From Candidatus Thorarchaeota archaeon (GTDB taxonomy: Archaea > Asgardarchaeota > Thorarchaeia > Thorarchaeales > Thorarchaeaceae), in the NCBI GenBank assembly GCA_004524445.1, contig SDNP01000023.1:1-48190 (forward strand): a DNA stretch of 48,190 bases. Direction: 5' to 3'. A model generated the notes under the pieces. That model was given only the letters and a program-made list of their open reading frames with translations, was not told where the DNA came from and did not search any database. Shown here one piece after another: positions 4,308-42,099 of this stretch (the stretch's first letter is position 1; each line of letters opens with the position of its first letter). A program made the translations under genes and the position numbers.

Positions 4308-4982
4308 ATGTTGAAGGCTATCATCTTTGACCTTGATGGCACAATAACAAAATTGGAGCTACCACTTGAAGACATGCGTAGAGATACAAAGAACTACTAC
4401 ATAAGAAAGGGACTTCCCGCGAAATTGCTTGATGCCGCGGATGGAATATCGAGTTCTACGGAGAAAGCGAAGACCTACTTTGAGGAGAGTGGAATATCAT
4501 CTCAGGAGTGGAGTAGAATGGAGCGTGAAATAGATAAAATCCTATCTTCTCACGAAGGTGGCTCGGCCCAAGAAGTAACTCTGATGAAAGATTCTCTTGA
4601 AACAGTGAGCAAAATAAAGGAAATGGGTTTCAAGACGGCAATTCTTACGAACAACGGGAGGGCCGCTGTTGATATTATCGCGAAGCAGATTCCTTTGCAT
4701 AGATATTTTGATTTAATACATACTCGCCATGAGGTTCCTAATCCCAAACCATTCCCAGATGGCTTAAACAAAATATTGCGTGATCTCTCCGTGAAACCAG
4801 ACGAGTCGGTTTATGTGGGAGATGCCCTAATCGATGCTGTTGCTGCAAACAGGGCTCAAATAGAGTTCTGGGGAGTTACCACGGGCGAAACATCTGAAGG
4901 TGCTCTAAGAGAAGCCGGTGCAAGTGAGGTTTTTGACAGGTTATCAGGCATTATTGACCTGGCAAGAAAGCGGATGAATTAA
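4308..4982 (+). CDS. HAD-family phosphatase (phosphoglycolate-phosphatase-like)
   Basis: FDLDGT motif I, LTNN, KPxP, VGDxxxD. Start moved to ATG 4308, just before motif I. Confidence 0.9.
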   Translation: MLKAIIFDLDGTITKLELPLEDMRRDTKNYYIRKGLPAKLLDAADGISSSTEKAKTYFEESGISSQEWSRMEREIDKILSSHEGGSAQEVTLMKDSLETVSKIKEMGFKTAILTNNGRAAVDIIAKQIPLHRYFDLIHTRHEVPNPKPFPDGLNKILRDLSVKPDESVYVGDALIDAVAANRAQIEFWGVTTGETSEGALREAGASEVFDRLSGIIDLARKRMN

Positions 4983-5150
4983 CGAAACTGTTACGAAGAG
5001 TGTGTCCATTTGTTAAGACAATATCGGTTTTTTCTTCCTTTTCATGTTCCCTATGTCCAGATAAAGCGGCGAGCGAACCACTTTAGTTCCAATTTGACAG
5101 AATTGCATCTTCTGCCCATCTAGTGCCTAAATTCGGGCATCTAGAACACA

Positions 5151-5194
5151 TATTCCGAACCGCATTATTCGATTCTATTATATACTATTCGATG
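5151..5194. promoter_or_regulatory. Repeated TATTCGA boxes flanking a TATA-like element
   Basis: TATTCCGA (5151), TATTCGAT (5166) and TATTCGAT (5186) around TATTATATA, upstream of the 5258 ORF. Confidence 0.3.
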
Positions 5195-5257
5195 CACTAT
5201 GGCAGTAGAAACCTTCCCTCGTCAGTGAAACACAGGAGCGTTTAGAGAATAAACACA

Positions 5258-5647
5258 ATGATGATAGATGAGGGTCTCTTATCAATTCTGAAGAGTGCAA
5301 ATGGAGCGTATTCCTGCAAGAGACCGCCTATACCCAAAAACTGGAATTCCGTTGACCGTCCTTATGTCGCTCTTCTGCTTCCCGGTGTAGATGAAAAAGA
5401 GGTCTTTAGATTTGTGCTCTCTCAACCACCCAGCGATTTCGGTGACCTTTCTGGTGAGCTCGAAACTGCAGATCTAGATACTCTCCCATCACTTTCCATT
5501 ATCGAGGTAAAGCATAATGGCCACGAGTACTCATACTACAGATTAGACCCAGATGGGTGGAAGAAAGTTGCAGAATCAAAGAGTCCGTTTATGGTCGAAG
5601 TGTTTTCTCATGGAACGCAGCCGATTATTCTGGGCGTAGGAAACTAG
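5258..5647 (+). CDS. Hypothetical protein
   Basis: 129-aa ORF with plausible composition and upstream TATA-like and AGGAG sequences. No recognised motif. Confidence 0.6.
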   Translation: MMIDEGLLSILKSANGAYSCKRPPIPKNWNSVDRPYVALLLPGVDEKEVFRFVLSQPPSDFGDLSGELETADLDTLPSLSIIEVKHNGHEYSYYRLDPDGWKKVAESKSPFMVEVFSHGTQPIILGVGN

Positions 5648-5702: not shown

Positions 5703-6131
5703 TCACAAAGTCTTGCCGAAATAGTATTTCTTGATGTTACTTGGATAGCCTTCAAACTTGCCAAACAACTCATAACCGAGCCCTCTGTAGAACTCGGGGG
5801 CCTGAAAGGAATAAGTGGAAGTCTGAGCGGATATACAGCCATGTTCCTTCGCAACCTTCTCTGCGTTTGCCACAAGTCGTCCTCCATTTCCTCGGTCCCG
5901 ATAGTCTTCAGCTATCCACAATACATCAATCATGAAGCTCTTGTATATCGCTCGTCCCCAGAGTGCTCCTTGGATTTCCCCATTATCATCCTTCAGAACA
6001 AGTTGTATACTTATGCCCGGATCCCTTGATAATCCATCACTTCGTTCCGCATTGAAATGCGAAAGATTCGAATGGATTTTTTCGATATCTTCATCTGATA
6101 GTTCATTTGACATTGTAAGATTAGGGGACAC
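5703..6131 (-). CDS. GNAT N-acetyltransferase
   Basis: LWIAEDYRDRGNGGRL acetyl-CoA motif, TYSFQAPEFYRGLGY. GAGGT Shine-Dalgarno before GTG. Confidence 0.9.
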   Translation of the reverse strand: MSPNLTMSNELSDEDIEKIHSNLSHFNAERSDGLSRDPGISIQLVLKDDNGEIQGALWGRAIYKSFMIDVLWIAEDYRDRGNGGRLVANAEKVAKEHGCISAQTSTYSFQAPEFYRGLGYELFGKFEGYPSNIKKYYFGKTL

Positions 6132-6387
6132 TCGATGACCTCACGTTAATTATGTGCTCGCGTCTGATTCAGACATGTAAATTTTCCCGCGTATCATAAC
6201 ATAACCTGTCAAATATGAGTATCCCCTCTGATTCTACTCTTCAACAGTACACGAGTCAGGTCCTTGTAAAGAGGAAATAGTTGAGATGTGAACCGCTTTC
6301 GTTGCGAGAAGCATTACTATTCCTGATTTCTCTAGTAAATCTCTTCTCAAACGAGATTATATTATATGTGGATTTGAACATAATATG

Positions 6388-6480
6388 AATCGAGAAGCTC
6401 GGGGGCCATCCTCTCATAGAGTGTCATTCTCTCTCCTCCTTCCAACGTTCTTTGGCCCCCGTCACGATTTTTCTGTTTCT
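6388..6480 (+). ncRNA. Candidate small structured RNA
   Basis: Perfect 9-bp GC stem CGGGGGCCA(6400-6408)/TGGCCCCCG(6453-6461), outer AATCG/CGATT, pyrimidine-rich loop, upstream TTATAT and downstream T-tract, in a 530-bp intergenic gap. Confidence 0.4.
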
Positions 6481-6717
6481 TCCTAACGACCTTCTCTTGT
6501 TTTTGATCCTAATCCTGCTTCGTATTTGGTTCCTTTATGAAACCTATTTGAGATATGACGACTAAACTTATATGAAATAATATTAAATAATATGTTGTAC
6601 GAGCTCGCAGGAATCCGCTACAGTATCTCTCTCAGATTCATTAGTTGAAAGCACCGGCAAATGCTTGAACCTGTGAGCTCCTACTCTCACTCCAAATTTC
6701 GTCTTGTTTTCCAGCAA

Positions 6718-7098
6718 ATGTTAAAAGGAAGGCAAAGCTCTCGCAAACCAGAGGAATACGATTTGTCAGGTGCCAGGAAAGCCGTAGATAGTACCATTCG
6801 AAGAATTCTCGTTTACACCGCGGAGATCATAGCATCGATTATCCTGCTCATCATCATTTGTCTTCCACTAGCATTTGTGGTTCCCATGTGGATTCAGCAG
6901 GTGGTTTTTGGCACTCCTACAGCTCAATTGCTTGTCAATCCTATTGCTTGGTTCGGTCCGGTTGGTGCTGTGTTCATCACCTTGGGACTCGGCGGTGTAT
7001 CTTCTGTGGTCGGATATCTCTATGTCACAAGACTTCTCCTGACCGGGGACACGGTTTCGTCGGATTCCGATGCCATACTCTCTGATGAAGACGAATAG
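6718..7098 (+). CDS. Small membrane protein (2 TM)
   Basis: Two long hydrophobic segments and an acidic tail. Start uncertain (6661 or 6718). Confidence 0.7.
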   Translation: MLKGRQSSRKPEEYDLSGARKAVDSTIRRILVYTAEIIASIILLIIICLPLAFVVPMWIQQVVFGTPTAQLLVNPIAWFGPVGAVFITLGLGGVSSVVGYLYVTRLLLTGDTVSSDSDAILSDEDE

Positions 7099-7412
7099 AG
7101 AGACCTACGCTACAAGAAGATGAATAAGATAGAATCCCCCAAGGTCTCTCGTCTATCGGGGTTACCATTGGTTCAGCGTCATAATCCTGATTACATCTAG
7201 GTTTATCACTCCATCTCGCTACCAGAAATCGAAGCTTTAGAGCAGGAATGCAATCTCAATAGTTACTACTAATTTCCTGAAGCTAACCACCGGCCTTAGA
7301 TATGAGTTGCTGAATACATTCAGCTGAAGGCTAATCTACTGATAATGCATCTGATGAAGTTGCTCATGAAGTTAAGATACCAATCGGAATATCTTCAGAC
7401 GTTTTGACCTTC

Positions 7413-8228
7413 TCAAGAGGCTCCGATTTTTTCCTTTAGTTTGGTTACAATCTCTTCAAACCTTTCTGCAGCGACCGCATCGGGTGCCTGAATAACAAAT
7501 GGGGTTCCCCTGTCACTAGCTGTTGTGACTCTGGGATCTAGAGGAAGTGATCCAAGATAGTCGACTTCATATCTCTCACTTGCCTCTTTAGCTGCCCCGC
7601 CACCAAAAATCTGATACGAACTTCCACATTCAGGACAGATGAACTCACTCATATTCTCGATGATTCCCAAGACCGGAACTCCCATCTTGTTCACCAGTTG
7701 TATTGCCCGTCTTGCGTCCTGAACCGCAACTTCCTGTGGAGTGGACACAATAACCACTCCGTCAATGTCGGGAATGGACTGAAGGATACTGAGAATCTCG
7801 TCACCAGTGCCTGGGGGCAGATCTGCTACCATCACGTCTAGTTTTCCCCACTCGACATCTGACAGAAACTGACTAATTGCTCTTGCAACTAGAGGGCCTC
7901 TCCAAGCAACTGCATCATCTTGGTTTCTGAGCAGAAAACCCATGCTCATGACCTTAACCCCAAGTGGGCCTTCAATTGGATGAATCTTGTTCTCTTCTGC
8001 TACAGGATGCTGTCCTTCTAATCCGAGCAGTTTCGGCACGTTGGGACCGTAGATATCAACATCGACTATGCCTGTAGATAATCCCTGTTTTGCGAACGAC
8101 ATGGCCAAGTTAGTGGCAACAGTTGTCTTGCCGACACCGCCTTTACCAGAGAGAACCACTATCTTGTGTTTCACATCTTTCATCGATTCTTTGATTTCTT
8201 CGGGAATTTCGAGCTTTGGCTGTGACAT
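7413..8228 (-). CDS. mrp: Mrp/NBP35 (ApbC) Fe-S cluster carrier ATPase
   Basis: SGKGGVGKTT, DVDIYGPN, WRGP, DLPPGTGD, ENMS-FICPECG. Confidence 0.95.
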   Translation of the reverse strand: MSQPKLEIPEEIKESMKDVKHKIVVLSGKGGVGKTTVATNLAMSFAKQGLSTGIVDVDIYGPNVPKLLGLEGQHPVAEENKIHPIEGPLGVKVMSMGFLLRNQDDAVAWRGPLVARAISQFLSDVEWGKLDVMVADLPPGTGDEILSILQSIPDIDGVVIVSTPQEVAVQDARRAIQLVNKMGVPVLGIIENMSEFICPECGSSYQIFGGGAAKEASERYEVDYLGSLPLDPRVTTASDRGTPFVIQAPDAVAAERFEEIVTKLKEKIGAS

Positions 8229-9230: not shown

Positions 9231-9881
9231 ATGGGTTTCTTAGGCGGTAAGAAGAAGGTCGACACCGAACGCGGTATCTTGGAAATAAAAGGCAGCATGA
9301 ATGCTTTGACCCTGAGGATACGACGTTTAGAAACTAGAATGGCGGAGGAGCGGAAGAAAGCAAAAGAGGCCATGGCGAATGGCAATCGCTCCGGTGCTCG
9401 TTCCCATCTATCTATAGTGGTTGACTTAGAGAATAGAAGAAATCGCTATCAGCAGCAGTTTCTAACATTGGAAACGGCACTTCTAAATCTGGAAGAAGCA
9501 AAAGATCAAGCAGAAGTTCTCCGTGCTTTCAAAATTGCGAACGAGGCCCTTGAGTCTGCAAGGAAGATGCTAAGTCCGACGGAAATACAGCAGCAACTGG
9601 ATAAGTTATCGGATTCCTTTGAGCATATTTCGGTTGCAGGTGAACTACTGTCCGAAGATATCTCAACAACTGGGACTTCGCTTGAATCTGATGAACGTAT
9701 TGAAAGACAACTCGAGCAAATGGAAGCAGAGGTTCTTCTAGAGAAAGAGGGCGTCTTACCTCCATTAGACGAGCAGAAAGAGAAATCAGATAAGGAAAAA
9801 GAAAGCGAAGAACAGAGAATTGATGAATTGCTAGCCAATCTCGAAGAAGAAGCCAAGAAAGAGCGAGAGGCTGAGAGCTGA
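9231..9881 (+). CDS. ESCRT-III Snf7-family protein (Vps20/32/60 class)
   Basis: Basic N-terminal helical hairpin (RIRRLE...AKEAMANGNRSGARSHL), LETALLNLE...EVLRAFKIANEAL pattern, acidic C-terminal half ending in an amphipathic IDELLANLEEE helix. Confidence 0.85.
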   Translation: MGFLGGKKKVDTERGILEIKGSMNALTLRIRRLETRMAEERKKAKEAMANGNRSGARSHLSIVVDLENRRNRYQQQFLTLETALLNLEEAKDQAEVLRAFKIANEALESARKMLSPTEIQQQLDKLSDSFEHISVAGELLSEDISTTGTSLESDERIERQLEQMEAEVLLEKEGVLPPLDEQKEKSDKEKESEEQRIDELLANLEEEAKKEREAES

Positions 9882-9909
9882 GCAAAAACTAGTTAATGGA
9901 GGATTCCTC

Positions 9910-10542
9910 ATGCCCATACGTTTGGTTGTATTTGATTTAGATGGTACTCTAACAACCCACAATAGTTCGTGGTGGCGGCTGCATGAGGTTTTTGGCACTC
10001 ATGAAGAGGGACAGAAATACTATGATCAGTATTTTGCGGGTGAAATTAACTATCAGCAATGGGCAGACCTGGACGCTGGCCTCTGGAAGGGTAAATCTCT
10101 TGCTGAGGTTGAACGAATCGCCAATGAAACCCACCTTGTTCCTGGAGCTCGGGAAACGATTGAAGAGCTTAAGAAACATTCTATTGATGTTGCTATCCTT
10201 TCAGGAGGCATTGACATATTAGCCAACAGAATAGCTGCGCGTCTGGCGATTGACTATGTCATGGTAAATAAAATCCACCACGAGAATGGTGCTTTGACAG
10301 GAGAAGTTGAGGTTGTTGTTGGGTGGGGTGGAAAGGCTGAAGAGATCAAACAAGTCTTCAATGATTTCAAAGTCCTTCCAGAAGACACTGCATTCGTTGG
10401 AGACGGAAAGAATGACGTTAGTGCATTCTCTGTTGTAGGTCTTTCTATTGCCTTCAATCCCGAACATGAAGAAGTGGCAAGAGCGGCAGACATAGTTGTT
10501 CGTGGAAATGATCTGAGAGCGATACTCAAGCATGTCCTTTAG
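9910..10542 (+). CDS. serB: HAD-IB phosphatase, phosphoserine-phosphatase-like
   Basis: FDLDGTL, LSGG, K, GDGKND, SIAFN. Confidence 0.8.
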   Translation: MPIRLVVFDLDGTLTTHNSSWWRLHEVFGTHEEGQKYYDQYFAGEINYQQWADLDAGLWKGKSLAEVERIANETHLVPGARETIEELKKHSIDVAILSGGIDILANRIAARLAIDYVMVNKIHHENGALTGEVEVVVGWGGKAEEIKQVFNDFKVLPEDTAFVGDGKNDVSAFSVVGLSIAFNPEHEEVARAADIVVRGNDLRAILKHVL

Positions 10543-10597
10543 AAGAGTGTTTTTCTTATCTTGAGTTGGCCTAAGTTTCAGTATCATTGTAACTTTA

Positions 10598-11746
10598 TCA
10601 GCCATATCGCATGCTGGAGCCGGTATTCAGAACAACAATTTCCTCGTCGTAGTCTACAATGCTGCTTTCAACCAAGTTCCTGAGACCAGAAAATCCTACA
10701 GCGGCTTCCGGGCATATATCAATGCCCTCAATTCTGGGTACCAGTTTCATCATGGGTTTTACTTCTGCCTCGGCTACCGCAACGGCGCCTCCTTCTGACT
10801 GGTTGATAATCTTCATTATTAGTCGGTCTGCAAAAGGTGATGGAACTCTTAGCCCGAAGGCGGAGGTTTCAGCATCAGTCCATGGTTCGATATCCCCTGA
10901 ATTCTTTTCGTACGCCCTTACAATTGGTGCGCATCCTTCGCTTTGCGCAGCAAACATCCGTGGTGTCTTGCGTTCAAGCAACCCGATTTGCTGTAGTTCC
11001 TCAATCCCCTTCCAAATCCCTAGCATTGCTGTTCCCCCTCCCGTGGGGCAAACGATAACGTCCGGTATATTCCAATCCAACTGTTCGGCAATTTCAAATG
11101 CTAGAGTCTTTTTGCCTTCCACTCGGAAGGGTTCTTTCGTAGTTGAAAGGTTTGTCCACTTCCCTCCAGCCTTGGCCATGGCTTCTCCACAATCTGAAAT
11201 ATTGCCATCGACTTCGTGAATTATTCCTCCATACATTTCACAGCCTTCAAAGAACGCCTTAGGCGTATCCTTTGGCATGAAGATATCAGCCTCTGCATTT
11301 CCTGCTGCTGAGTAAGCACATACTGAAACCGCCGCGTTCCCAGCTGAGGGCAATGCGAATCTTGTGGATCCAAGTTCTAGATGTTTTGATATTGCAACTG
11401 ATATTCCTCTATCTTTGAAACTGAGTGTCGGATTTCGAGCCTCATCCTTTACCCTAAGATTCTGAAGCCCTAGATGCTTTCCAAGCCGATTTGCAAACAA
11501 GAGCGGGGTCCATCCTTCTCCCAATGTGGTTATGTTTGATGGAGGTCTCACGGGAAGCAAATCTGCATATCTCCACAAAGAATTCTCGGTTGATGGGAAT
11601 TGATTAGACTGGGCAGCTTCTTCAACCAGCTTCATATTGTATCGTGCAAATAGAGGTGATCCACAGACGCAGTATGAAACATCTCTCCTTACAGAATGAC
11701 TTCTTCCACATGCAGGGCATTCAAGATGAGTCAGTCGTGTGAACAC
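10598..11746 (-). CDS. thrC: Threonine synthase-like PLP enzyme
   Basis: N-terminal CxxC...Cx[22 protein letters not shown] (PLP Lys), EGKKT, PTGGG, NTG. Confidence 0.85.
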
Positions 11747-32968: not shown

Positions 32969-35548
32969 ATGTCCAAATCTAAACATAGCGATGACCGAGT
33001 AGTGAGCACTGCAGAAGCAATTCGCATGGCTTCGGCTTCCATATTAGGAACCACTACTAGTCAAGATATTGCCCTGGGCAGCGCCACGGGTTCTGGGACG
33101 AAATTAGAAGAAAATTCTCGGATTGTTGCAATGGGAGTGGTCCCTCTTGTTTCTGCATTTTCCCAAAAACTGCACGATAAAACCAATGTTGAACTGATAT
33201 CATTGGAGTGGGATTTAGGATCTGGTTCAAGTTCTGAAATTCTACCTGAACATCTGATAGTCTGTGCAGGCGGTGCAGACAGCTTTACAACCCATACTTG
33301 TGCTATTAGCTGGGAGAAAGGAGTAGTCGATCCCTTTCGTTTGAATTCGTATTTGCATCGTCTATCCGCAAAGATGAAACAAGTCGAAGATGCAATTCTT
33401 TCTAATCAGCTTGATTATGAGAAAGAAGGCATGTCAGTGCTTCGCCAATTCTGTGACAGATTCAATCTTGTCACTTTCGTTGAAATGCTCGATCGCAGGT
33501 TTCAAGAGAGTTGGGACTCGAAGAAGATTCAACAAGATGATGTTGACCTTCTCACTTCCTTAGCTGCAGGGATTAGAACGGACTACTCAACCGTGCCACC
33601 TGGACTGACGCTGACTGGAGGAATGTCTTTTACATTTGACAATCCATCTGCTTCCGAAAATCAGATTTTGGAACATCTCAGGAATCGCATCATTTCCCCC
33701 GTTTCTTTGGATAGCCTCGTGCAGGGTATCACTGAGCTTGGACAAGCAATAATAGCTGAGATAAACACCTATGCATATAGTACCGAAGAGGTTGACATCA
33801 CTCGCGCCACAATTGCCATGTTGGTGAAGTATCTTGGGACTGATAGTGTACCTATCAGCAATTTGGATATGGTTGCATCACGCATACATGATTTTGGGCT
33901 GATGATTCAATCAATTATGAACACATTCTCGGATATCACCGAGGCCCACATCCGCTCTGGTGAATCGTTAACCACTCATGGTCATAAGAAGAAGATTGTA
34001 GAGCACATGGAAGCGTCAACCCTTAAAGAAAATGAATTACAAAAAGCCTATGCCAAAGTCTTGATTGAGCATCTAGTATCATCTATTGAAAAGGAAATCA
34101 GCTTTGATGGACCCTATCGGGCATGGATGCTTCGAAGTATCATAACGTATTTCAATTATATGGCAAAGCGTGTTCATTCCTTCTTTGAGGAGGAATTGTC
34201 TAACTACATTGCAGCAAGAGCGGTTAAGGAATCGATGTATAAAGCATTGAGATCATTTGAGGGGGACGTGAATCCTGACGGAATGGCTTCAGAAGACTTT
34301 AGAGTATTTGAGGAATTCCAAAAAGCATTAACAAACCAAATTGACAGAACAGTCGATCGAAAGAGCTACGAGGGCGATGCAGAGATAGAACACCTTCTTC
34401 GAATTGCATCAGATGAAATTAGAGACGAGTTCCAAAAAATCAATATCTGGGACCTGATAGATTTTGCTGATGTTGCTGAGGTTACCAGAAATGAAATAGC
34501 AGCTATGAGAGAAAATTCTGGTGAATATGAAACAGTCGATCCTTCACAAATATCTCAATTATTGACTCGCTATGAAAACTTGGAAACTGAAATAATCCCC
34601 CACTTGGCTGAACACATTCTCTCAAAGGAGAGTATCCTGAAGCTCACTTCATCCACCAGAGAAGACTTTCTACGGATATTGAATGTAGTTGTTCAATCTC
34701 AAGATGATATGCCCGAAGAGTGGTATGCAGAGGCAAAACGGTGGATTGATCGGATTGACGTATTGATTAGCAATGATGCTCCCGTTTCAGAACGAATGAA
34801 GATTAGTATTGAAACAATATTTTCAGAATTGATGGAAGGAAGCAAAGCCGCCTCTATCATTGACCGCGTCAGAAAAGAAGCCGACCTAAGAGAGAATGAA
34901 TATGCACAAGTAGTAGATGAATGGAAGGCTGAATGTAAAAGAATTGAAGATGATAATATTCCAATACGGAAACACAATCGTGAAAGAGAGGAAATGAAGA
35001 AGAACGCCAGAGAGCAATATGAAAAGGAAACGCATGCTTATGAGGCAAAACTAGTAGAATACAATAGTCGGGCAAGTGATGAAGCGGACTCTTATGCTGT
35101 CCAAAAACCACAGGAACCAGATTCTTTGGAAAACAGGCTTGTGCGAATCGACGAACAATACCCTCACAAGAAGGAAATTCCTCTCCCTCCCAAACCGGAG
35201 ACACCTGAAATCACAAAGCAGTATTCTGTCCTGGCAGCCCTGTTGGATGATATTGTATCAAAGCTTAGAAAAAGTCAGGGTCAGATGCAAGACCGGTTTC
35301 TGAATGAATTGTCAAATTTGCAGCAACAAGCAGAGCAAGCGTACGAGAATATTACAATCCGCGTTGATACTGAGTTCTTGGAGTATTTAATGGATTCGAA
35401 GATCCGCAGATTGAGTAGAGCTGTTGCTACGCCAATTCGTGCTTATTTGCGAAATACCATTAATCCGGATATACTGTATCTTGTGAAATACAGCTTTTCT
35501 GAAAATGAGTTTCTGGTCGAAATTGGAAATAATCTGTTGAAGGGGTGA
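32969..35548 (+). CDS. Large hypothetical helical/coiled-coil protein (859 aa)
   Basis: Long uninterrupted ORF with a coiled-coil and Pro-rich region near the C-terminus. No recognised catalytic motif. Confidence 0.85.
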   Translation: MSKSKHSDDRVVSTAEAIRMASASILGTTTSQDIALGSATGSGTKLEENSRIVAMGVVPLVSAFSQKLHDKTNVELISLEWDLGSGSSSEILPEHLIVCAGGADSFTTHTCAISWEKGVVDPFRLNSYLHRLSAKMKQVEDAILSNQLDYEKEGMSVLRQFCDRFNLVTFVEMLDRRFQESWDSKKIQQDDVDLLTSLAAGIRTDYSTVPPGLTLTGGMSFTFDNPSASENQILEHLRNRIISPVSLDSLVQGITELGQAIIAEINTYAYSTEEVDITRATIAMLVKYLGTDSVPISNLDMVASRIHDFGLMIQSIMNTFSDITEAHIRSGESLTTHGHKKKIVEHMEASTLKENELQKAYAKVLIEHLVSSIEKEISFDGPYRAWMLRSIITYFNYMAKRVHSFFEEELSNYIAARAVKESMYKALRSFEGDVNPDGMASEDFRVFEEFQKALTNQIDRTVDRKSYEGDAEIEHLLRIASDEIRDEFQKINIWDLIDFADVAEVTRNEIAAMRENSGEYETVDPSQISQLLTRYENLETEIIPHLAEHILSKESILKLTSSTREDFLRILNVVVQSQDDMPEEWYAEAKRWIDRIDVLISNDAPVSERMKISIETIFSELMEGSKAASIIDRVRKEADLRENEYAQVVDEWKAECKRIEDDNIPIRKHNREREEMKKNAREQYEKETHAYEAKLVEYNSRASDEADSYAVQKPQEPDSLENRLVRIDEQYPHKKEIPLPPKPETPEITKQYSVLAALLDDIVSKLRKSQGQMQDRFLNELSNLQQQAEQAYENITIRVDTEFLEYLMDSKIRRLSRAVATPIRAYLRNTINPDILYLVKYSFSENEFLVEIGNNLLKG

Positions 35549-35552
35549 AGAT

Positions 35553-37991
35553 ATGTCAAGTTCATGGTTTTTCAAAACCCGTCAAATGAGTGAGGCTGGA
35601 AAAGAATTCTTGCTTACCCAAGCTCTGGCAACCCACATGAGGAGTCCTAGAGACCGTGAGTTGGTTAGAGAGAGTATGGCTGAGGAGAAACCACTGGAAG
35701 ACATTTTTTCCTTTTTTGGTGCCTTTTATCTGTACCATTATCAGGGGGTTCGATTGCTAGATATTACTGATCAGGGGGAAATGACTATTGAGGAGCAACA
35801 AGCGCTTAGCGTGAAAGAAAGAGAAATGCTTGAGCTGGAGATACGTCAACTACTGGGCAATAAGCAACGTGAGGAATTAGATGTATCGAAACTGGTTAGC
35901 GAATTTTTCGTGTCAGCAATAGATGATTTTTCGGATAGCCTGCAGGAGCATTCGAAGGTAGTTGAACCACTTATCAACTTGCTTGAAAAATTCCTACAAA
36001 AAATTCCGGGAGAGTATTCCCTGAATGCTGTTATTGATTTTCTTCTAGAAGTAACGGGCTGGGGGGAAAAATGGCGAGAAGAAATCTACATGAAAGCCTC
36101 TGGATTAAAAGAATCTTCTCTTTCCCTAAGGGACGAGCTGCTAAGGAATCATGAGGAAGAAGTGATTGAAAGCACACTAGTCAAACGCGCACAAGACATG
36201 TTATCAATTAATCTGCAGTCTATCGATGAAAATAACTGGAAGGATATGTTGGCGACTCAAACTAAGCATACGGTCGCAGAGGCGATTATTGAAAACCGAC
36301 TTAATACCAGGATATCTCTCAATGGATTTCGTTCAGGGCACAAAATAAGAATCTCTTTGTTAGAAGCGTTTGAAGCTGAAATTGAAATGCCTACCAATTT
36401 GGACTCATTTGAAGCTCAAATGGCTGAACTAGCTTCAAACCTCCTTGTGGACTCATTCGCAGAGAATCCGGACGAGATTTTTGATGCTCTCTCTGTACTG
36501 ACTGAAATGAGAACGGACGAAATTTCCGAGGAGTTAGCCTCCGGGGGAATACGAACAGGACATAACCTGATGGAGGGTCTTTCAATCAAAGCTCCAGATG
36601 AGGAAGAGGATAGTGAATTGAATCTCTCCCGAGAAGAGCTTGAAGAGATTTCGCGTTCATTGCGTCGGTTGGAGAAAATTGAAGAAACATTAGAGAAGCC
36701 AGTGAAAGGAATGCTTCGAGCCAGAGGACTCAGGTCGTCTGAAATCGATAAGGTTTCGGTAGAAACCTTGACAAAAAATCCAAGTGAACTCATTGCTATT
36801 GAATCCCAAGTTATTGCAGAACTAAAAAAGAAGTTGCGTCTACCTACGCCCGAGGAAATCTCACAACTCTTGGAGCTCAGAGCGGAATATGAAGACAAGA
36901 ACTTGGATCAAATTGGCTCTACTGCAGCAAGAATGGGTCAGAAACTTCAATACGGTGAAACTGTGGAGAAACTCAAGTATGACCTGGTTTGGCATTCAGT
37001 TATTTCAGTCTTGAAGAACCTGGCTCGAGTCATCGAAATATACATCCGTTCAAAGCACGACTTGGTCCGGATTAAGGCCATTCTCAAGAGCATCTATGAA
37101 GAGTCAGAATTAGAACTGCAATTTCTTCGTGAGGAAATCCTAATGGATCTTGCCTCAGATCGACTACTCGAAACTAAGCGGGTACATCCTGATCTTGACG
37201 CCTCGATAATACGGTCTTGGTATCACGCACGGCTTCAGGGAATAGATTTGAATACCGCTATTTCCGAAGTTGAAAAGAGCCCTTCACCCGTTTTCAAGGA
37301 CATAATTGAAAAACCACTGAAGACAGCGGATCTCAAGATAGATAATTATGCTATCGCATTCGACCTCATGCAGAGATTTCTTACTAAACAACGCCAAGAG
37401 AAAGTGGAACGGGAGGCTTTGATGATTGAGGCAAAGAAAAGAGAAGAAAGACTTCTCGAGTCCAAGAAAGACGACTTGGATGTGATGAACTATGTTTCGA
37501 CCAAAGCATACACCGCTTTTCGTGCAATTGGCAGAGTGGGCAAGAGAGGGCTAGAATGGAACTCAAACGATGACACCAAGCTGGCGAATCTCCTGTCTTT
37601 CTACATCAGGCGGAATCGAGGACGCACTATCTGTAGTTCCTGCGGGGAAGAGGTATCTGAAGAATACTGTCCTCAGCATGGCTCAGCAAATATCCGAAAC
37701 TCGAATGACATAGACAACTTGAGCAATTTTGTTAGGCAAGCTGTTTCGGATATCAAAGAAGGTCTGATTGGACCTAAGAGTGAATCAATGACATGGGATG
37801 AAGCCCGGTCTCTTGTGAAAAGAGAAATATCCAAACTAAAGCAAAGAGGCAAAATCACAGGAAAAACTGATGTTAACAATTTACTTCCAGGAGAAATCAA
37901 CTACATAGTCGGCCCTGCAATTGCAGAGATCATCGGACAGTATTTCAATGACTCCTTGAAGTACGCTGCTCGTAGTGCAGATATCGCATAG
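35553..37991 (+). CDS. Large hypothetical helical protein with Zn finger (812 aa)
   Basis: Starts 4 nt after the previous stop with a GGGGTGA SD. Glu/Leu-rich helices, CSSC...CPQH. Confidence 0.85.
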   Translation: MSSSWFFKTRQMSEAGKEFLLTQALATHMRSPRDRELVRESMAEEKPLEDIFSFFGAFYLYHYQGVRLLDITDQGEMTIEEQQALSVKEREMLELEIRQLLGNKQREELDVSKLVSEFFVSAIDDFSDSLQEHSKVVEPLINLLEKFLQKIPGEYSLNAVIDFLLEVTGWGEKWREEIYMKASGLKESSLSLRDELLRNHEEEVIESTLVKRAQDMLSINLQSIDENNWKDMLATQTKHTVAEAIIENRLNTRISLNGFRSGHKIRISLLEAFEAEIEMPTNLDSFEAQMAELASNLLVDSFAENPDEIFDALSVLTEMRTDEISEELASGGIRTGHNLMEGLSIKAPDEEEDSELNLSREELEEISRSLRRLEKIEETLEKPVKGMLRARGLRSSEIDKVSVETLTKNPSELIAIESQVIAELKKKLRLPTPEEISQLLELRAEYEDKNLDQIGSTAARMGQKLQYGETVEKLKYDLVWHSVISVLKNLARVIEIYIRSKHDLVRIKAILKSIYEESELELQFLREEILMDLASDRLLETKRVHPDLDASIIRSWYHARLQGIDLNTAISEVEKSPSPVFKDIIEKPLKTADLKIDNYAIAFDLMQRFLTKQRQEKVEREALMIEAKKREERLLESKKDDLDVMNYVSTKAYTAFRAIGRVGKRGLEWNSNDDTKLANLLSFYIRRNRGRTICSSCGEEVSEEYCPQHGSANIRNSNDIDNLSNFVRQAVSDIKEGLIGPKSESMTWDEARSLVKREISKLKQRGKITGKTDVNNLLPGEINYIVGPAIAEIIGQYFNDSLKYAARSADIA

Positions 37992-38390: not shown

Positions 38391-39791
38391 ATGGGGAAGA
38401 AATTCTATCCGCAGGGTGTAATGCCCGCTCTCGTAACTCCATTTAGTAAGGATGGAGACATGATGGAGGAAAGCTTTCGGCAAATAATCGATCATACAAT
38501 AGAAAAGGGAGCTACTGGCGTAGTTCCTGCAGGAACTACTGGTGAATTCGTATATATGCGGACTGAGGAACGAAAAAAGCTTCTACGATTAACTGTAGAG
38601 TATGTTGATGGTAGGGTTCCAGTGGTTGCAGGCACAGGTCAGAATAGCACAAGAGCGACTATAGAATTGACAAAATATGCAGCCGATATCGGTTGTGACG
38701 CCGCTCTTGTAATATCACCGTTTTACCTGCGACCGGCTGATAAGGGATACTTCGAGCATTATCAATCAGTTGCTCTCAAGGGTGGATTACCGATAATTGC
38801 CTACAATATCCCCCAATGCACCTTGGGATGGTTGCAATCAAATGTGCTGGAAGATTTGGCTGAGATTGACACCATGGTCGGTGTAAAGGATAGCAGCGGC
38901 AACATCGGACACACAATAGAACTCATTCAAAAGCTCAGAGGAAAGATGTCTGTAGTCATAGGTCACGATGAATGTTTTCTATCTGCTGTTGCTGCGGGGG
39001 CTGATGCTGCAATAATGGCGTCAGCAAATATCATGCCTGACTTATGGCTGGATATCATGCAGAAAGTGAAAGAGGGCAAGATTGAGGAAGCAAGAGATTT
39101 GCAGCTCTCAGCTCAGACGTTTGCACGAATTGTTACACGTAAGGGCGGTGCTCCTCCAGTAAAGGCCGCGCTCAGAATGATGGGCATAGATGCTGGCAGA
39201 GCAAGGATGCCTCTGAACAGCGGTGGCACTCTCACTGTCGAATTGAGGGATGAAATAAAGGTCGAACTTGAGAAGCTTGGCATTATCAAAAAGAAGGAAC
39301 ATAAGCAACTGAAGACTGACCTTAATGTCATTCAGGCAATGGAAAAAGAAGGATTCAAGATTTCAAATCTAGAGAAAGTCAAAACTTCAAACTCCGAGAA
39401 TGAAACCATATCAGTAGGCATTGCTATCGGTCCAAAGACCGGAGATCTTGGACGTGCTTTTGTCAAACTACTAACAACTCCGAGAAACGGTCACGAGGCA
39501 CTCACAGTAATACTTGAGCCAAACCTTGCAGTGAAGCCCAGTAGTATTATGTGGCCGGCAAGGAGAATCAAATCAATGCGACAAGCATCCATGTTTTATG
39601 GACCCGTACAATCTGGTGCTGGGAAAGCAATATCTAGACTCTTAGGAGAGAACGAGATTCCTCATGACACGTTGAACAGCGAGGTTCTACTGATTGTTGC
39701 GGATGCTGATTTGAATTTCAGGGATCGGAGAGCTGTGACACATGCAACTGAAGAAGCAGTATATGCTGCATTAAGGGAGATATGGAGGTAA
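38391..39791 (+). CDS. DapA-family class I aldolase fused to a degenerate Fae domain (subunit 1)
   Basis: PALVTPF, GTTGE, PFY, YNIP, VKDSSG. C-terminal IGPKTG..G.AF...L..P..GH..L.VI.PNL.VKP...Q...F.GP.Q matches Fae. Confidence 0.85.
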   Translation: MGKKFYPQGVMPALVTPFSKDGDMMEESFRQIIDHTIEKGATGVVPAGTTGEFVYMRTEERKKLLRLTVEYVDGRVPVVAGTGQNSTRATIELTKYAADIGCDAALVISPFYLRPADKGYFEHYQSVALKGGLPIIAYNIPQCTLGWLQSNVLEDLAEIDTMVGVKDSSGNIGHTIELIQKLRGKMSVVIGHDECFLSAVAAGADAAIMASANIMPDLWLDIMQKVKEGKIEEARDLQLSAQTFARIVTRKGGAPPVKAALRMMGIDAGRARMPLNSGGTLTVELRDEIKVELEKLGIIKKKEHKQLKTDLNVIQAMEKEGFKISNLEKVKTSNSENETISVGIAIGPKTGDLGRAFVKLLTTPRNGHEALTVILEPNLAVKPSSIMWPARRIKSMRQASMFYGPVQSGAGKAISRLLGENEIPHDTLNSEVLLIVADADLNFRDRRAVTHATEEAVYAALREIWR

Positions 39792-39796
39792 ATACA

Positions 39797-41269
39797 ATGT
39801 CTGATTTCAAGTTCAAAGGTGTATACCCAGCGCTTGTGACCCCTTTCGATGAAAATGGTGTCGATGAAGAAAAATACAGGAATCTGATTGATTTTACGAT
39901 AAAGTCGGGTGCCACCGGTATAGTACCTTGTGGTACAACTGGCGAGTTCACATCTATGAGATTCGAAGAAAAATTGGACGCAATCAAAATTGCCTGTGAC
40001 GCCGCAAAGGGTCGTGTACCAGTTATTGCTGGGACGGGAGCAGCACATACGGGAGATGTGATTAAGCTAACACGAAGCGCTGCCGAATTCGGTGCGAGTG
40101 CCGCTCTTGTGGTTACACCTTACTTCCTTAAGCCTAGCAACAAGGAAGTGTTCGAGCACTTCGAGAAAATTGCTAACAACTCTGATATCCCGATATTCAT
40201 GTACAACATTCCTCAAGTAACTGGAGTTCCCATTCATTGGACGCTCGTTGATGGTCTGCGAGAAATTGACGGTATAATTGGAATGAAGGATTCAAGTGGG
40301 AATCTAGTCAATCTTACAACAATCCTAGTGAGGAGGCCAGACGACTTTCAGGTTGTGGTTGGGCACGATGAGGTGGCATTACCTGCTCTAGCAAGTGGCT
40401 GTGATGGTGCTATTCTCGCTAGTGCAAACGTATTTCCTGGTAGATATATCAGGATGCAAAATGCCCTGGCAGCGGGTGACCTGCGAGAAGCTCTAATCAT
40501 TCAAAGAAGTATCCAACGAACAGTCAGAATCATCGTAAACAAGGGAGGCGGTCTTGCAGTTAAGGCTGCGCTGAATATGATCGGCATTCCTGTTGGAAAA
40601 GCAAGACCTCCTTTGATTGAAGGAGATGTCTTGAGCTATGAGGATATTGATGAGTTACGTACCTGTCTAGAAGACCTGCAACTGATTCCTCGGGGAAGAG
40701 TCACATTCAGGGCCGGTGAGAATTCTATTGTGGCTGAGGCGTATCCGAAGGCTGTTGGCTTAGTTCCCGACTCTGTAGATGATATCAGTCTGCTACATGG
40801 TGAGTCACTCTGTGGTGGAGGAACAGAGGTTGCCCATGTTGATTTGATTATGGGGTTACGAGATGGGCCTATGAGAGAGGCATTGAAGAACGCTGGAAAG
40901 ATTAGGGATGGCTTTCACTCGTCGAATACTATCAAGGGCCTGGAACCAACCACGGTCTTTGCACCAACAGTTACTGTGACAACCGAGAAGCATCAAAAGC
41001 TCATCTATGATGTTGCACAGAAAGCCGTTTCTGATGCGGTTTCACGGTCGATAACGGATGGTGTAGTACCAGAGGAACTAGTTGACGATCTCATATTAGC
41101 TGTCAATGTGTTTGTTCATCCTGATGCTACTAATCCCAAAAGGGTTCACATCAACAACTTCAGAGCAGTACGTCATGCATTACGGAGAGCAATTGAAGGT
41201 AGGCAGTCACGAGATGAGATAGAAGCTCGAATTGATTCAGCTAGGCATCCATTCGCCTACAATCCTTAA
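39797..41269 (+). CDS. DapA-family class I aldolase fused to a Fae domain (subunit 2)
   Basis: PALVTPF, GTTGE, PYF, YNIP, MKDSSG. C-terminal GESLCGGGTEVAHVDLIMG...AQ.AV..AV...G..P....DDL....VFVHP.A...N...A...A....RHPF matches Fae. GGAGGT SD. Confidence 0.88.
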   Translation: MSDFKFKGVYPALVTPFDENGVDEEKYRNLIDFTIKSGATGIVPCGTTGEFTSMRFEEKLDAIKIACDAAKGRVPVIAGTGAAHTGDVIKLTRSAAEFGASAALVVTPYFLKPSNKEVFEHFEKIANNSDIPIFMYNIPQVTGVPIHWTLVDGLREIDGIIGMKDSSGNLVNLTTILVRRPDDFQVVVGHDEVALPALASGCDGAILASANVFPGRYIRMQNALAAGDLREALIIQRSIQRTVRIIVNKGGGLAVKAALNMIGIPVGKARPPLIEGDVLSYEDIDELRTCLEDLQLIPRGRVTFRAGENSIVAEAYPKAVGLVPDSVDDISLLHGESLCGGGTEVAHVDLIMGLRDGPMREALKNAGKIRDGFHSSNTIKGLEPTTVFAPTVTVTTEKHQKLIYDVAQKAVSDAVSRSITDGVVPEELVDDLILAVNVFVHPDATNPKRVHINNFRAVRHALRRAIEGRQSRDEIEARIDSARHPFAYNP

Positions 41270-41618: not shown

Positions 41619-41840
41619 ATGGTTGAGACCTGCATAATCCAGCTGAAGGAGCTACCCTCACGCAGTTTACAGAGTCAAGTGCGAAGCTTCATCAATGGAC
41701 AAAAGGTGTCAGTTATGGACTCATCTGGACGTCTCTATGATGTGGGAATTAAACAGAACAAGCTGGTTTTGATATCCGATGACATCTACTATGCCTACAA
41801 AACTGACGGGGATTGTGGGTTAGGTTCTGTGTCCTACTGA
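41619..41840 (+). CDS. Possible small hypothetical protein
   Basis: 73-aa ATG ORF in an otherwise ORF-poor gap. No motif. Confidence 0.35.
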   Translation: MVETCIIQLKELPSRSLQSQVRSFINGQKVSVMDSSGRLYDVGIKQNKLVLISDDIYYAYKTDGDCGLGSVSY

Positions 41841-42099
41841 TTGAGCAAGACGGGTCTCAGCCACCCTTTCGTTTTAGAATCAAAGAAATAATGTGGCAAG
41901 TCTCAGCCTGCTCTTGGTCTTCATAGCCTCGTGGCTCCGACAGGGGTAGCGTCTTCATCGACCGCCAAATAGCTGGAGGATGGAATCCTTATCAATATGT
42001 GGCATGATGCGTGCATCTGACCATAATATCCACATTATCCCTTTTCAGTGTCCAATCCACCATTTCATTTAATAGCTGCCTAAGTTATACCTAAGAAGT

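Follow-up and report, generated by a model that had tools for sequence, protein, structure and literature searches.

The stretch of DNA analysed here, referred to as the window, comprises 48,190 nt and is contig C62 of a Candidatus Thorarchaeota genome of 2.79 Mb that is approximately 90% complete. It contains two adjacent genes on the same strand, A and B, each of which encodes an aldolase barrel of the DHDPS family fused to a C-terminal domain related to Fae (Table 1). An earlier reading made from the sequence alone (the sequence-only reading) had proposed this architecture, and profile searches agree with it in both proteins: the Pfam DHDPS profile (PF00701) is matched above its curated cut-off with E values of 1.9e-73 (A) and 2.3e-72 (B), and the Pfam Fae profile, which has a cut-off of 27 bits, with 85 bits (E 7.2e-24) over profile positions 8-135 of 159 for A and 108.5 bits (E 4.2e-31) over positions 2-158 for B. 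The aldolase motifs GTTGE, YNIPQ(C/V)T and KDSSG, quoted in that reading, are all present in both. The genes had been described as lying 5 nt apart, which is correct when the downstream of the two possible ATG codons of B is taken as its start; with the upstream ATG, B would instead overlap the end of A by 10 nt, as it does in relatives, and in either case A and B are tightly coupled. They had also been described as two intact fusions of an aldolase barrel to a Fae-like domain. The fusion is found in both; however, the two are not equal, as only the Fae domain of B is nearly complete while that of A is truncated and lacks the His motif. Orthologues of B have 491-495 aa and are 66-93% identical, every close protein relative of the pair carries the database label Thorarchaeota or Promethearchaeota, and A and B together hold the sole Fae domains of the source genome.

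Table 1. Positions of genes A and B, their domains and neighbouring features in the window (Ec, numbering of Escherichia coli DapA; ORF, open reading frame)
Feature	Position	Strand	Evidence and remarks
Gene A, aldolase-Fae fusion with degenerate Fae 'His face', 466 aa	38391..39791 (ORF from 38382)	+	ORF, Pfam, A clade
A aldolase domain, DHDPS-family class I	38412..39260	+	Pfam; T49/T50, Y112 (= Ec Y107), Y138 and K166 kept; C143 at Ec R138
A Fae-like domain, truncated	39393..39776	+	ETISVG instead of EVAHxD (Ser341 at catalytic His); C-terminal ~25 aa with HPF gone
Gene B, aldolase-Fae fusion bearing the Fae catalytic His	39782..41269	+	495 aa from ATG 39782, 490 aa from ATG 39797; ORF, Pfam, B clade
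B aldolase domain, DHDPS-family	39809..40621	+	T47/T48, Y136 and K164 kept; V141 at Ec R138, F110 at Ec Y107
B Fae domain, near full-length	40799..41254	+	EVAHVD (His347, Asp349), FVHP, C-terminal HPFAYNP; central ILEPN/GP deleted or diverged
Small ORF, 73 aa, no Pfam family	41619..41840	+	In ~830-nt gap after B; conserved in position and strand at seven related Thor loci (tblastn, 37-99% identical)
859-aa protein, no Pfam family	32969-35548	+
812-aa protein, no Pfam family	35553-37991	+	CxxC...CxxH zinc-ribbon-like motif near C-terminus

Databases label this fusion family 4-hydroxy-tetrahydrodipicolinate synthase, a label that stems from scores just above the cut-off of the NCBIfam dapA model TIGR00674 (A 214.4 and B 239.6 bits, cut-off 206 bits). 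If the label were taken literally, A and B would be genuine DapA enzymes (EC 4.3.3.7), and it agrees with this that the nearest solved structures by sequence are those of DHDPS. What A and B have in common with DapA is the fold and the machinery for forming a Schiff base with pyruvate: when 46 fusions were aligned to E. coli DapA, the numbering of which is used below unless stated otherwise, Thr44, Thr45, Tyr133 and the Schiff-base Lys161 were retained in all of them. However, Arg138, which binds aspartate semialdehyde, is replaced by Cys or Val in all 46, single-copy fusions included (Cys143 in A and Val141 in B), so that its loss, already recognised in the sequence-only reading, is a property of the entire set. 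In DHDPS dimers, Tyr107 reaches into the active site of the partner subunit; in the family of the source genome this residue is Tyr in A and Phe in B. No match to DapB (TIGR00036) was found in the source genome, although absence from an incomplete genome is no proof, and the Fae domain would have no role in lysine synthesis. Other NCBIfam models of the DHDPS family (N-acetylneuraminate lyase, KDG aldolase, HpaI-like, KdgD) fall far below their cut-offs (nanA 150-152 bits against 382, Arch_KDGaldase 114-122 bits against 390), and the only further DHDPS-family gene of the source genome is KdgD-like. Taken together, A and B are not DapA, and we regard it as highly improbable that the database label describes their activity.

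The Fae domains of A and B differ in what they have kept. B retains the motif GExLxG...EVAHxDL with His347 and Asp349, as well as FVHP, NN and the C-terminal ARHPFxYxP, and has lost ILEPN and GP; A retains GxExLxxILEPNLxVxP and RQAxxYGPVQ, has Ser341 at the position of the catalytic His in the EVAHxD motif, and lacks the last ~25 residues. The full set of Fae motifs is present in the single-copy fusions; in the Thorarchaeota, a Fae site with its catalytic His would be obtained only if A and B work together. Among 20 orthologues of A, ILEPNL and RQAxxYGPVQ do not vary, the set retained by B is likewise invariant in 20 orthologues of B, and each half is under purifying selection. The Fae of Methylobacterium extorquens is a homopentamer of solved structure (1Y5Y/1Y60), and we take its His22 to be the acid catalyst. 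Aligned with this enzyme, B matches over nearly its full length, including the His22/Asp24 motif and the C-terminal HPFA, and A over the central part only; unlike it, both Thor domains are incomplete and have kept complementary sets of motifs, and a cyclic homopentamer is unlikely for the A/B pair. On the NCBIfam Fae equivalog TIGR03126 (cut-off 118.05 bits), A scores 73.6 bits over positions 12-137 of 160 and B 118.0 bits, just below the cut-off. To judge from these alignments, what remains in A and B are the complementary halves of a single ancestral Fae site.

A different view of the same domains would be that they no longer handle formaldehyde and, attached to an ordinary pyruvate aldolase, now serve oligomerisation or regulation, or bind some other ligand. 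In favour of this view, both miss the equivalog cut-off, B narrowly, and their Pfam scores of 85 and 108 bits compare with about 195-240 bits in other Asgard families. Against it, what B has kept is precisely the catalytic face with His and Asp, and what A has kept is the loops of the face next to it, without variation in 20 orthologues each, and the Fae domain is complete in the ancestral single-copy fusions; we therefore think it improbable that the Fae function has been lost. Prediction of a complex between the Fae domains of B and A gave an ipSAE of 0.87 (0.87, 0.72 and 0.87 in the individual runs), the best of three controls reaching 0.00, and thereby passed a mark attained by 58 of 80 solved complexes and by 2 of 110 mismatched pairs. 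At least 58% of the contacts were common to the runs, and the partner pLDDT was at least 73. In the predicted interface, His28/Asp30 of B (domain numbering) faces residues 55-63 (ILEPNLAVK) and 85-90 (GP, QSG) of A, which shows the retained halves to be both sides of one ancestral inter-subunit site; the prediction is not evidence that A binds B.

The distribution of the fusion was followed in 301 genomes of the phylum, sorted into families, among which f1 is the Thor (Thorarchaeota) family of the source genome and f9, f24 and f27 are Loki-type families; counts for f1 refer to 77 genomes when the source genome is added to the 76 of the family and, for some profiles, to 76. The fusion is present in 71 of 76 f1 genomes, nearly always with two hits, and the scan found no canonical Fae and no Fae-Hps in this family. 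In several other families (f9, f12, f13, f27 and further ones), a canonical Fae lies within a frame of ~400-440 aa, which is presumably Fae-Hps, often alongside a single fusion of ~500 aa whose Fae domain is complete. Fusions of this single-copy kind are common in other Asgard families. In a tree rooted on E. coli DapA, the A copies form one clade (SH-aLRT support 100) and the B copies another (99). As each clade spans the three families f1, f8 and f21, A and B go back to one old duplication, both products of which have been retained throughout. Well over two hundred database proteins have both domains, many of them labelled 4-hydroxy-tetrahydrodipicolinate synthase, and these appear to be mislabelled. 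The remark in the sequence-only reading that no characterised DapA-Fae fusion was known agrees with the literature searched, in which no paper on a DapA/DHDPS-Fae architecture was found; searches on 4-hydroxy-2-oxobutanoate (HOB) and formaldehyde aldolases turned up only reviews of synthetic methylotrophy.

Fusion of Fae to an aldolase that handles formaldehyde is in itself a known theme. Methanogens have a fusion of Fae with Hps, an aldolase that releases formaldehyde, and this Fae-Hps (5,6,7,8-tetrahydromethanopterin hydro-lyase/3-hexulose-6-phosphate synthase) occurs in archaea that use tetrahydromethanopterin (H4MPT), including other Asgard families. However, Hps is C-terminal and has the OMP-decarboxylase fold, whereas in A and B a DHDPS-family barrel precedes Fae, and in the Thorarchaeota the Fae site is moreover divided over two paralogous subunits. 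The Fae-Hps model NF009833 (cut-off 274 bits) matches A and B only through its Fae part, with 58 and 87 bits. What is new here is thus a variant of the theme with an unusual split active site. As regards the C1 carrier, genes for Mer, Mtd, Mch and Ftr adjoin each other on contig C9 of the source genome and a second Mch copy lies elsewhere, which means that metabolism of the methylene-H4MPT type is encoded. The connection to an H4MPT pathway suggested earlier is therefore backed in part, by mtd, mch and ftr together with Mer; as to synthesis of the cofactor, searches for its committed enzyme, beta-RFAP synthase, gave no match in the source genome and a match in only 1 of 77 f1 genomes.

What has been shown directly is how the genes are built, which catalytic residues they have, that their retained motifs complement each other, that one duplication gave rise to them, and in which contexts the genes described below occur; the heteromer, its substrates, channelling and direction are inferred. 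According to this proposal, A and B would be two subunits of one hetero-oligomer descended from a single-copy aldolase-Fae fusion. Each subunit would contribute a class I pyruvate-type aldolase barrel acting through a Schiff base, and Fae activity would require both, B providing the His347/Asp349 face and the C-terminal elements and A the ILEPNL and GPVQ loops. The enzyme would interconvert 5,10-methylene-H4MPT (or a related pterin) plus pyruvate and H4MPT plus HOB, with formaldehyde handed over from one active site to the other so that none escapes. HOB is suggested as the product because the Fae module implies formaldehyde or a methylene-pterin and the DHDPS-type barrel a pyruvate enamine, and the compound also fits the gene contexts, as it is one transamination away from homoserine. 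In Thorarchaeota, the reaction would run in the direction of synthesis and thus provide a route from C1 plus C3 units to the skeleton of homoserine, threonine and methionine. We rate the chances as roughly even that A and B form one such heteromeric enzyme for methylene-pterin, pyruvate and HOB, working, as seems likely, in the synthetic direction in Thorarchaeota.

There is a related precedent in PanB (ketopantoate hydroxymethyltransferase), which likewise hydroxymethylates a 2-oxo acid at C3 with a methylene-pterin as donor but is metal-dependent, belongs to another superfamily and has no separate Fae module. Since PanB performs the analogous transfer from methylenetetrahydrofolate, the pair could be an enzyme of the same type that acts on a 2-oxo acid other than pyruvate, for example 2-oxoisovalerate, as in ketopantoate synthesis, or 2-oxobutanoate. 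The residue at position 138 and its neighbours vary among A, B and the single-copy fusions (C/V, TG/TL), which leaves the pocket undefined and is compatible with such a substrate. It is an established fact, however, that the characterised enzymes of the DHDPS family all use pyruvate as donor; the pyruvate-binding GTTGE motif, Tyr133 and Lys161 are kept, and the gene contexts point to homoserine and threonine rather than pantothenate. We consider a different 2-oxo acid to be unlikely. Among the explanations that rank below a cleavage reaction (see below), it is the most likely, followed by a non-catalytic Fae remnant and lastly by a true DapA.

The gene contexts centre on a protein of ~430 aa, here called X430, that belongs to no Pfam or NCBIfam family. 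In at least 38 genomes of f9, f24 and f27, its gene immediately precedes that of the single-copy fusion, and in f9 the two occur together in 43 of the 46 genomes that have either. The source genome encodes a copy of 426 aa on contig C53 (positions 9347-10624, minus strand), not beside A and B, which is 65% identical to the copy from a distant Asgard family. In the Thorarchaeota, X430 adjoins a gene for a ThrC-like protein with a gene for an ECF S component in between, an arrangement seen in 10 of 12 Thor genomes sampled. In f22 and f5, which lack the fusion, X430 heads an operon in which it is followed by genes for an aspartate-aminotransferase-like protein, Hom, an aldehyde:ferredoxin oxidoreductase (AOR) and a PatB-type C-S lyase. 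X430 was thus always seen beside genes related to homoserine and threonine or beside the aldolase-Fae fusion. These contexts mark it as a gene of the homoserine neighbourhood, in which the fusion takes the place next to X430 that is held elsewhere by Hom and the aminotransferase. The link to the homoserine/threonine family drawn in the sequence-only reading is therefore borne out at the level of gene context, through the neighbourhoods of X430, the ThrC-like genes and Hom. The Thor ThrC-like protein has a C-terminal winged-helix domain of the PadR type, and the ECF S component between the two genes is riboflavin-transporter-like. In local numbering of the locus of the source genome, in which X430 occupies 4348-5625, the S-component gene lies at 5798-6361 on the minus strand and the ThrC-like gene at 6467-7954 on the plus strand. 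X430 is predicted to consist of a helical domain and a TIM barrel (pLDDT 91.8). A Foldseek search of the PDB with this model gave nothing at E <= 1e-3, VIA-align retrieved generic TIM barrels only (best Z 12.2 for CutC, 11.3 for the U32 peptidase Mk0906), the best shape match in the Atlas was the U32 'peptidase' family (TM 0.56/0.75), and the feature search of the Atlas gave no usable match.

At the level of families, Hom and the fusion are largely complementary. Hom is found in 2 of 76 f1 genomes (3 of 77 with the source genome) and in none of f12, f13, f21 and f27, while in f3, f5, f7, f14, f19 and f22 the usual state is Hom without the fusion. In f9 (n = 68), 28 genomes have only the fusion, 19 only Hom, 16 both and 5 neither, so that 63 of the 68 have at least one of the two. 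Among f1 genomes, 15 of 77 have Asd and 75 of 76 have a ThrC-like gene, and it is this persistence of ThrC-like genes where Hom and Asd are missing that favours the synthetic direction in the Thorarchaeota. More tentatively, with distinctly less confidence than we have in the enzyme itself, we suggest that the fusion could be a natural methylene-H4MPT:pyruvate hydroxymethyltransferase of Asgard archaea, which in the Thorarchaeota would divide its Fae site between A and B and function only as their heteromer. It would catalyse the first step of an aspartate-independent route from C1 plus C3 units to homoserine, threonine and methionine, with X430 as a further step of the same pathway. In the fusion-less f22 and f5 genomes, as on contig C28 of the source genome (5984-8846 in local numbering of the locus), Hom is directly followed by AOR. 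No Asd was found in the source genome, and an AOR-dependent step between aspartate and aspartate semialdehyde that bypasses aspartate kinase and Asd is conceivable.

The serious rival to synthesis is the cleavage of HOB. In this case, the aldolase would split HOB into pyruvate and formaldehyde, and the Fae site would trap the toxic formaldehyde as methylene-H4MPT for oxidation via Mtd, Mch and Ftr. The fused Fae-Hps is established to run in the formaldehyde-releasing direction, and both the window and the genome resemble those of an amino-acid fermenter (peptide-binding protein, GDH, aminotransferases, AOR). HOB might then come from transamination of homoserine or from a substrate supplied via X430, for example by a dehydratase step on a C4 sugar acid, in the manner of a dehydratase paired with KDG aldolase; we hold this supply, like the catabolic direction as a whole, to be possible but rather unlikely. 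It would be in line with the weak resemblance of the X430 TIM barrel to sugar-acid enzymes such as mannonate dehydratase and with the ECF-type transporter component next to X430 in the Thorarchaeota, and the operon of f22 and f5 can be read as leading from HOB to homoserine, aspartate semialdehyde and aspartate. On the other hand, cleavage would leave the ThrC-like genes of the Hom-less f1, f12, f13 and f27 without a source of homoserine, no source of HOB was identified in f12 and f13, which are without X430, and an identity of 65% across distant families would sooner be expected of a core enzyme than of one in peripheral catabolism.

Several observations weigh against the proposed synthesis of HOB by an A/B heteromer. 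The source genome itself encodes a true Hom (425 bits), and the contig that carries it is indeed of Thor origin; contamination was considered and rejected, as the right half of this contig is 82% identical to a genome of the same genus. The 16 f9 genomes that have both show that the fusion is no simple replacement for Hom, and together with the source genome they led us to reject a strict rule to this effect. Those f9 genomes that lack Hom also lack the ThrC linked to it, and X430 is absent from the fusion-bearing f12 and f13. In addition, there is a gap in the route to threonine, as no homoserine kinase was found: ThrB scores above its cut-off in 0 of 77 f1 genomes, a search of 10 further Asgard genomes did not reveal it either, and the PGM-like type is above its cut-off in 0 of 77 f1 genomes, the matches being ApgM below the cut-off. 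X430 was tried as the missing kinase and rejected, since ThrB was not found in the 10 further genomes whether X430 was present or not and the pattern is therefore not complementary. The identity of the pterin carrier is made uncertain by the detection of beta-RFAP synthase in only one f1 genome, and the HOB chemistry and its substrates are deduced from the domain families. The predicted A/B interface may amount to recall of the Fae homopentamer already solved, and the prediction does not discriminate A/B from A/A or B/B. As for transcription, two studies of salt lakes yielded RNA-library contigs that are identical to gene A and nearly identical to gene B where they align, and one short contig spans the A/B junction; however, these metatranscriptome contigs cover only parts of A and B and, as DNA carry-over is possible, they lend weak support to transcription of the pair and are no proof of it.

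In the surroundings of A and B, one protein recurs: a protein of ~813 aa is encoded immediately upstream of the pair in nearly all Thor loci fetched, corresponding in place to the 812-aa protein of Table 1. The small ORF that follows B is covered by one RNA-library contig (positions 41618-41795). Behind it, a DNA stretch of ~120 nt (~41880-42012) is 76-85% conserved in five other Thor loci and occurs twice in tandem at one locus; it gave no Rfam or tRNA match, and the segment 41870-42020 folds no better than its shuffles (z = 0.97). The window as a whole has no tRNA and no match to an Rfam family. The single-copy fusions have other neighbours, namely glycerate 2-kinase and an ApgM-type phosphoglycerate mutase in f13, the glycine-cleavage P protein in f9 and a CitG-like protein in f12.

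The reaction that we propose for A and B has a parallel in engineered pathways. In the 'homoserine cycle' of synthetic methanol assimilation, promiscuous or engineered aldolases condense pyruvate with formaldehyde to HOB, which is then transaminated to homoserine. These aldolases act on free formaldehyde through side activities of unrelated or unfused enzymes, whereas A and B would couple the same reaction to a pterin C1 carrier. If the proposal is correct, the Asgard enzyme would be a natural counterpart of this engineered cycle and a new natural way for C1 units to enter central amino-acid metabolism by formation of a C-C bond, in those archaea that are the closest to eukaryotes, and it would offer synthetic methylotrophy a dedicated aldolase that channels formaldehyde. 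Metabolic reconstructions of Asgard archaea would also change, as these genes are now read as genes of lysine biosynthesis. The Thor pair is moreover a clean natural case of an active site that has been divided between paralogues after duplication.

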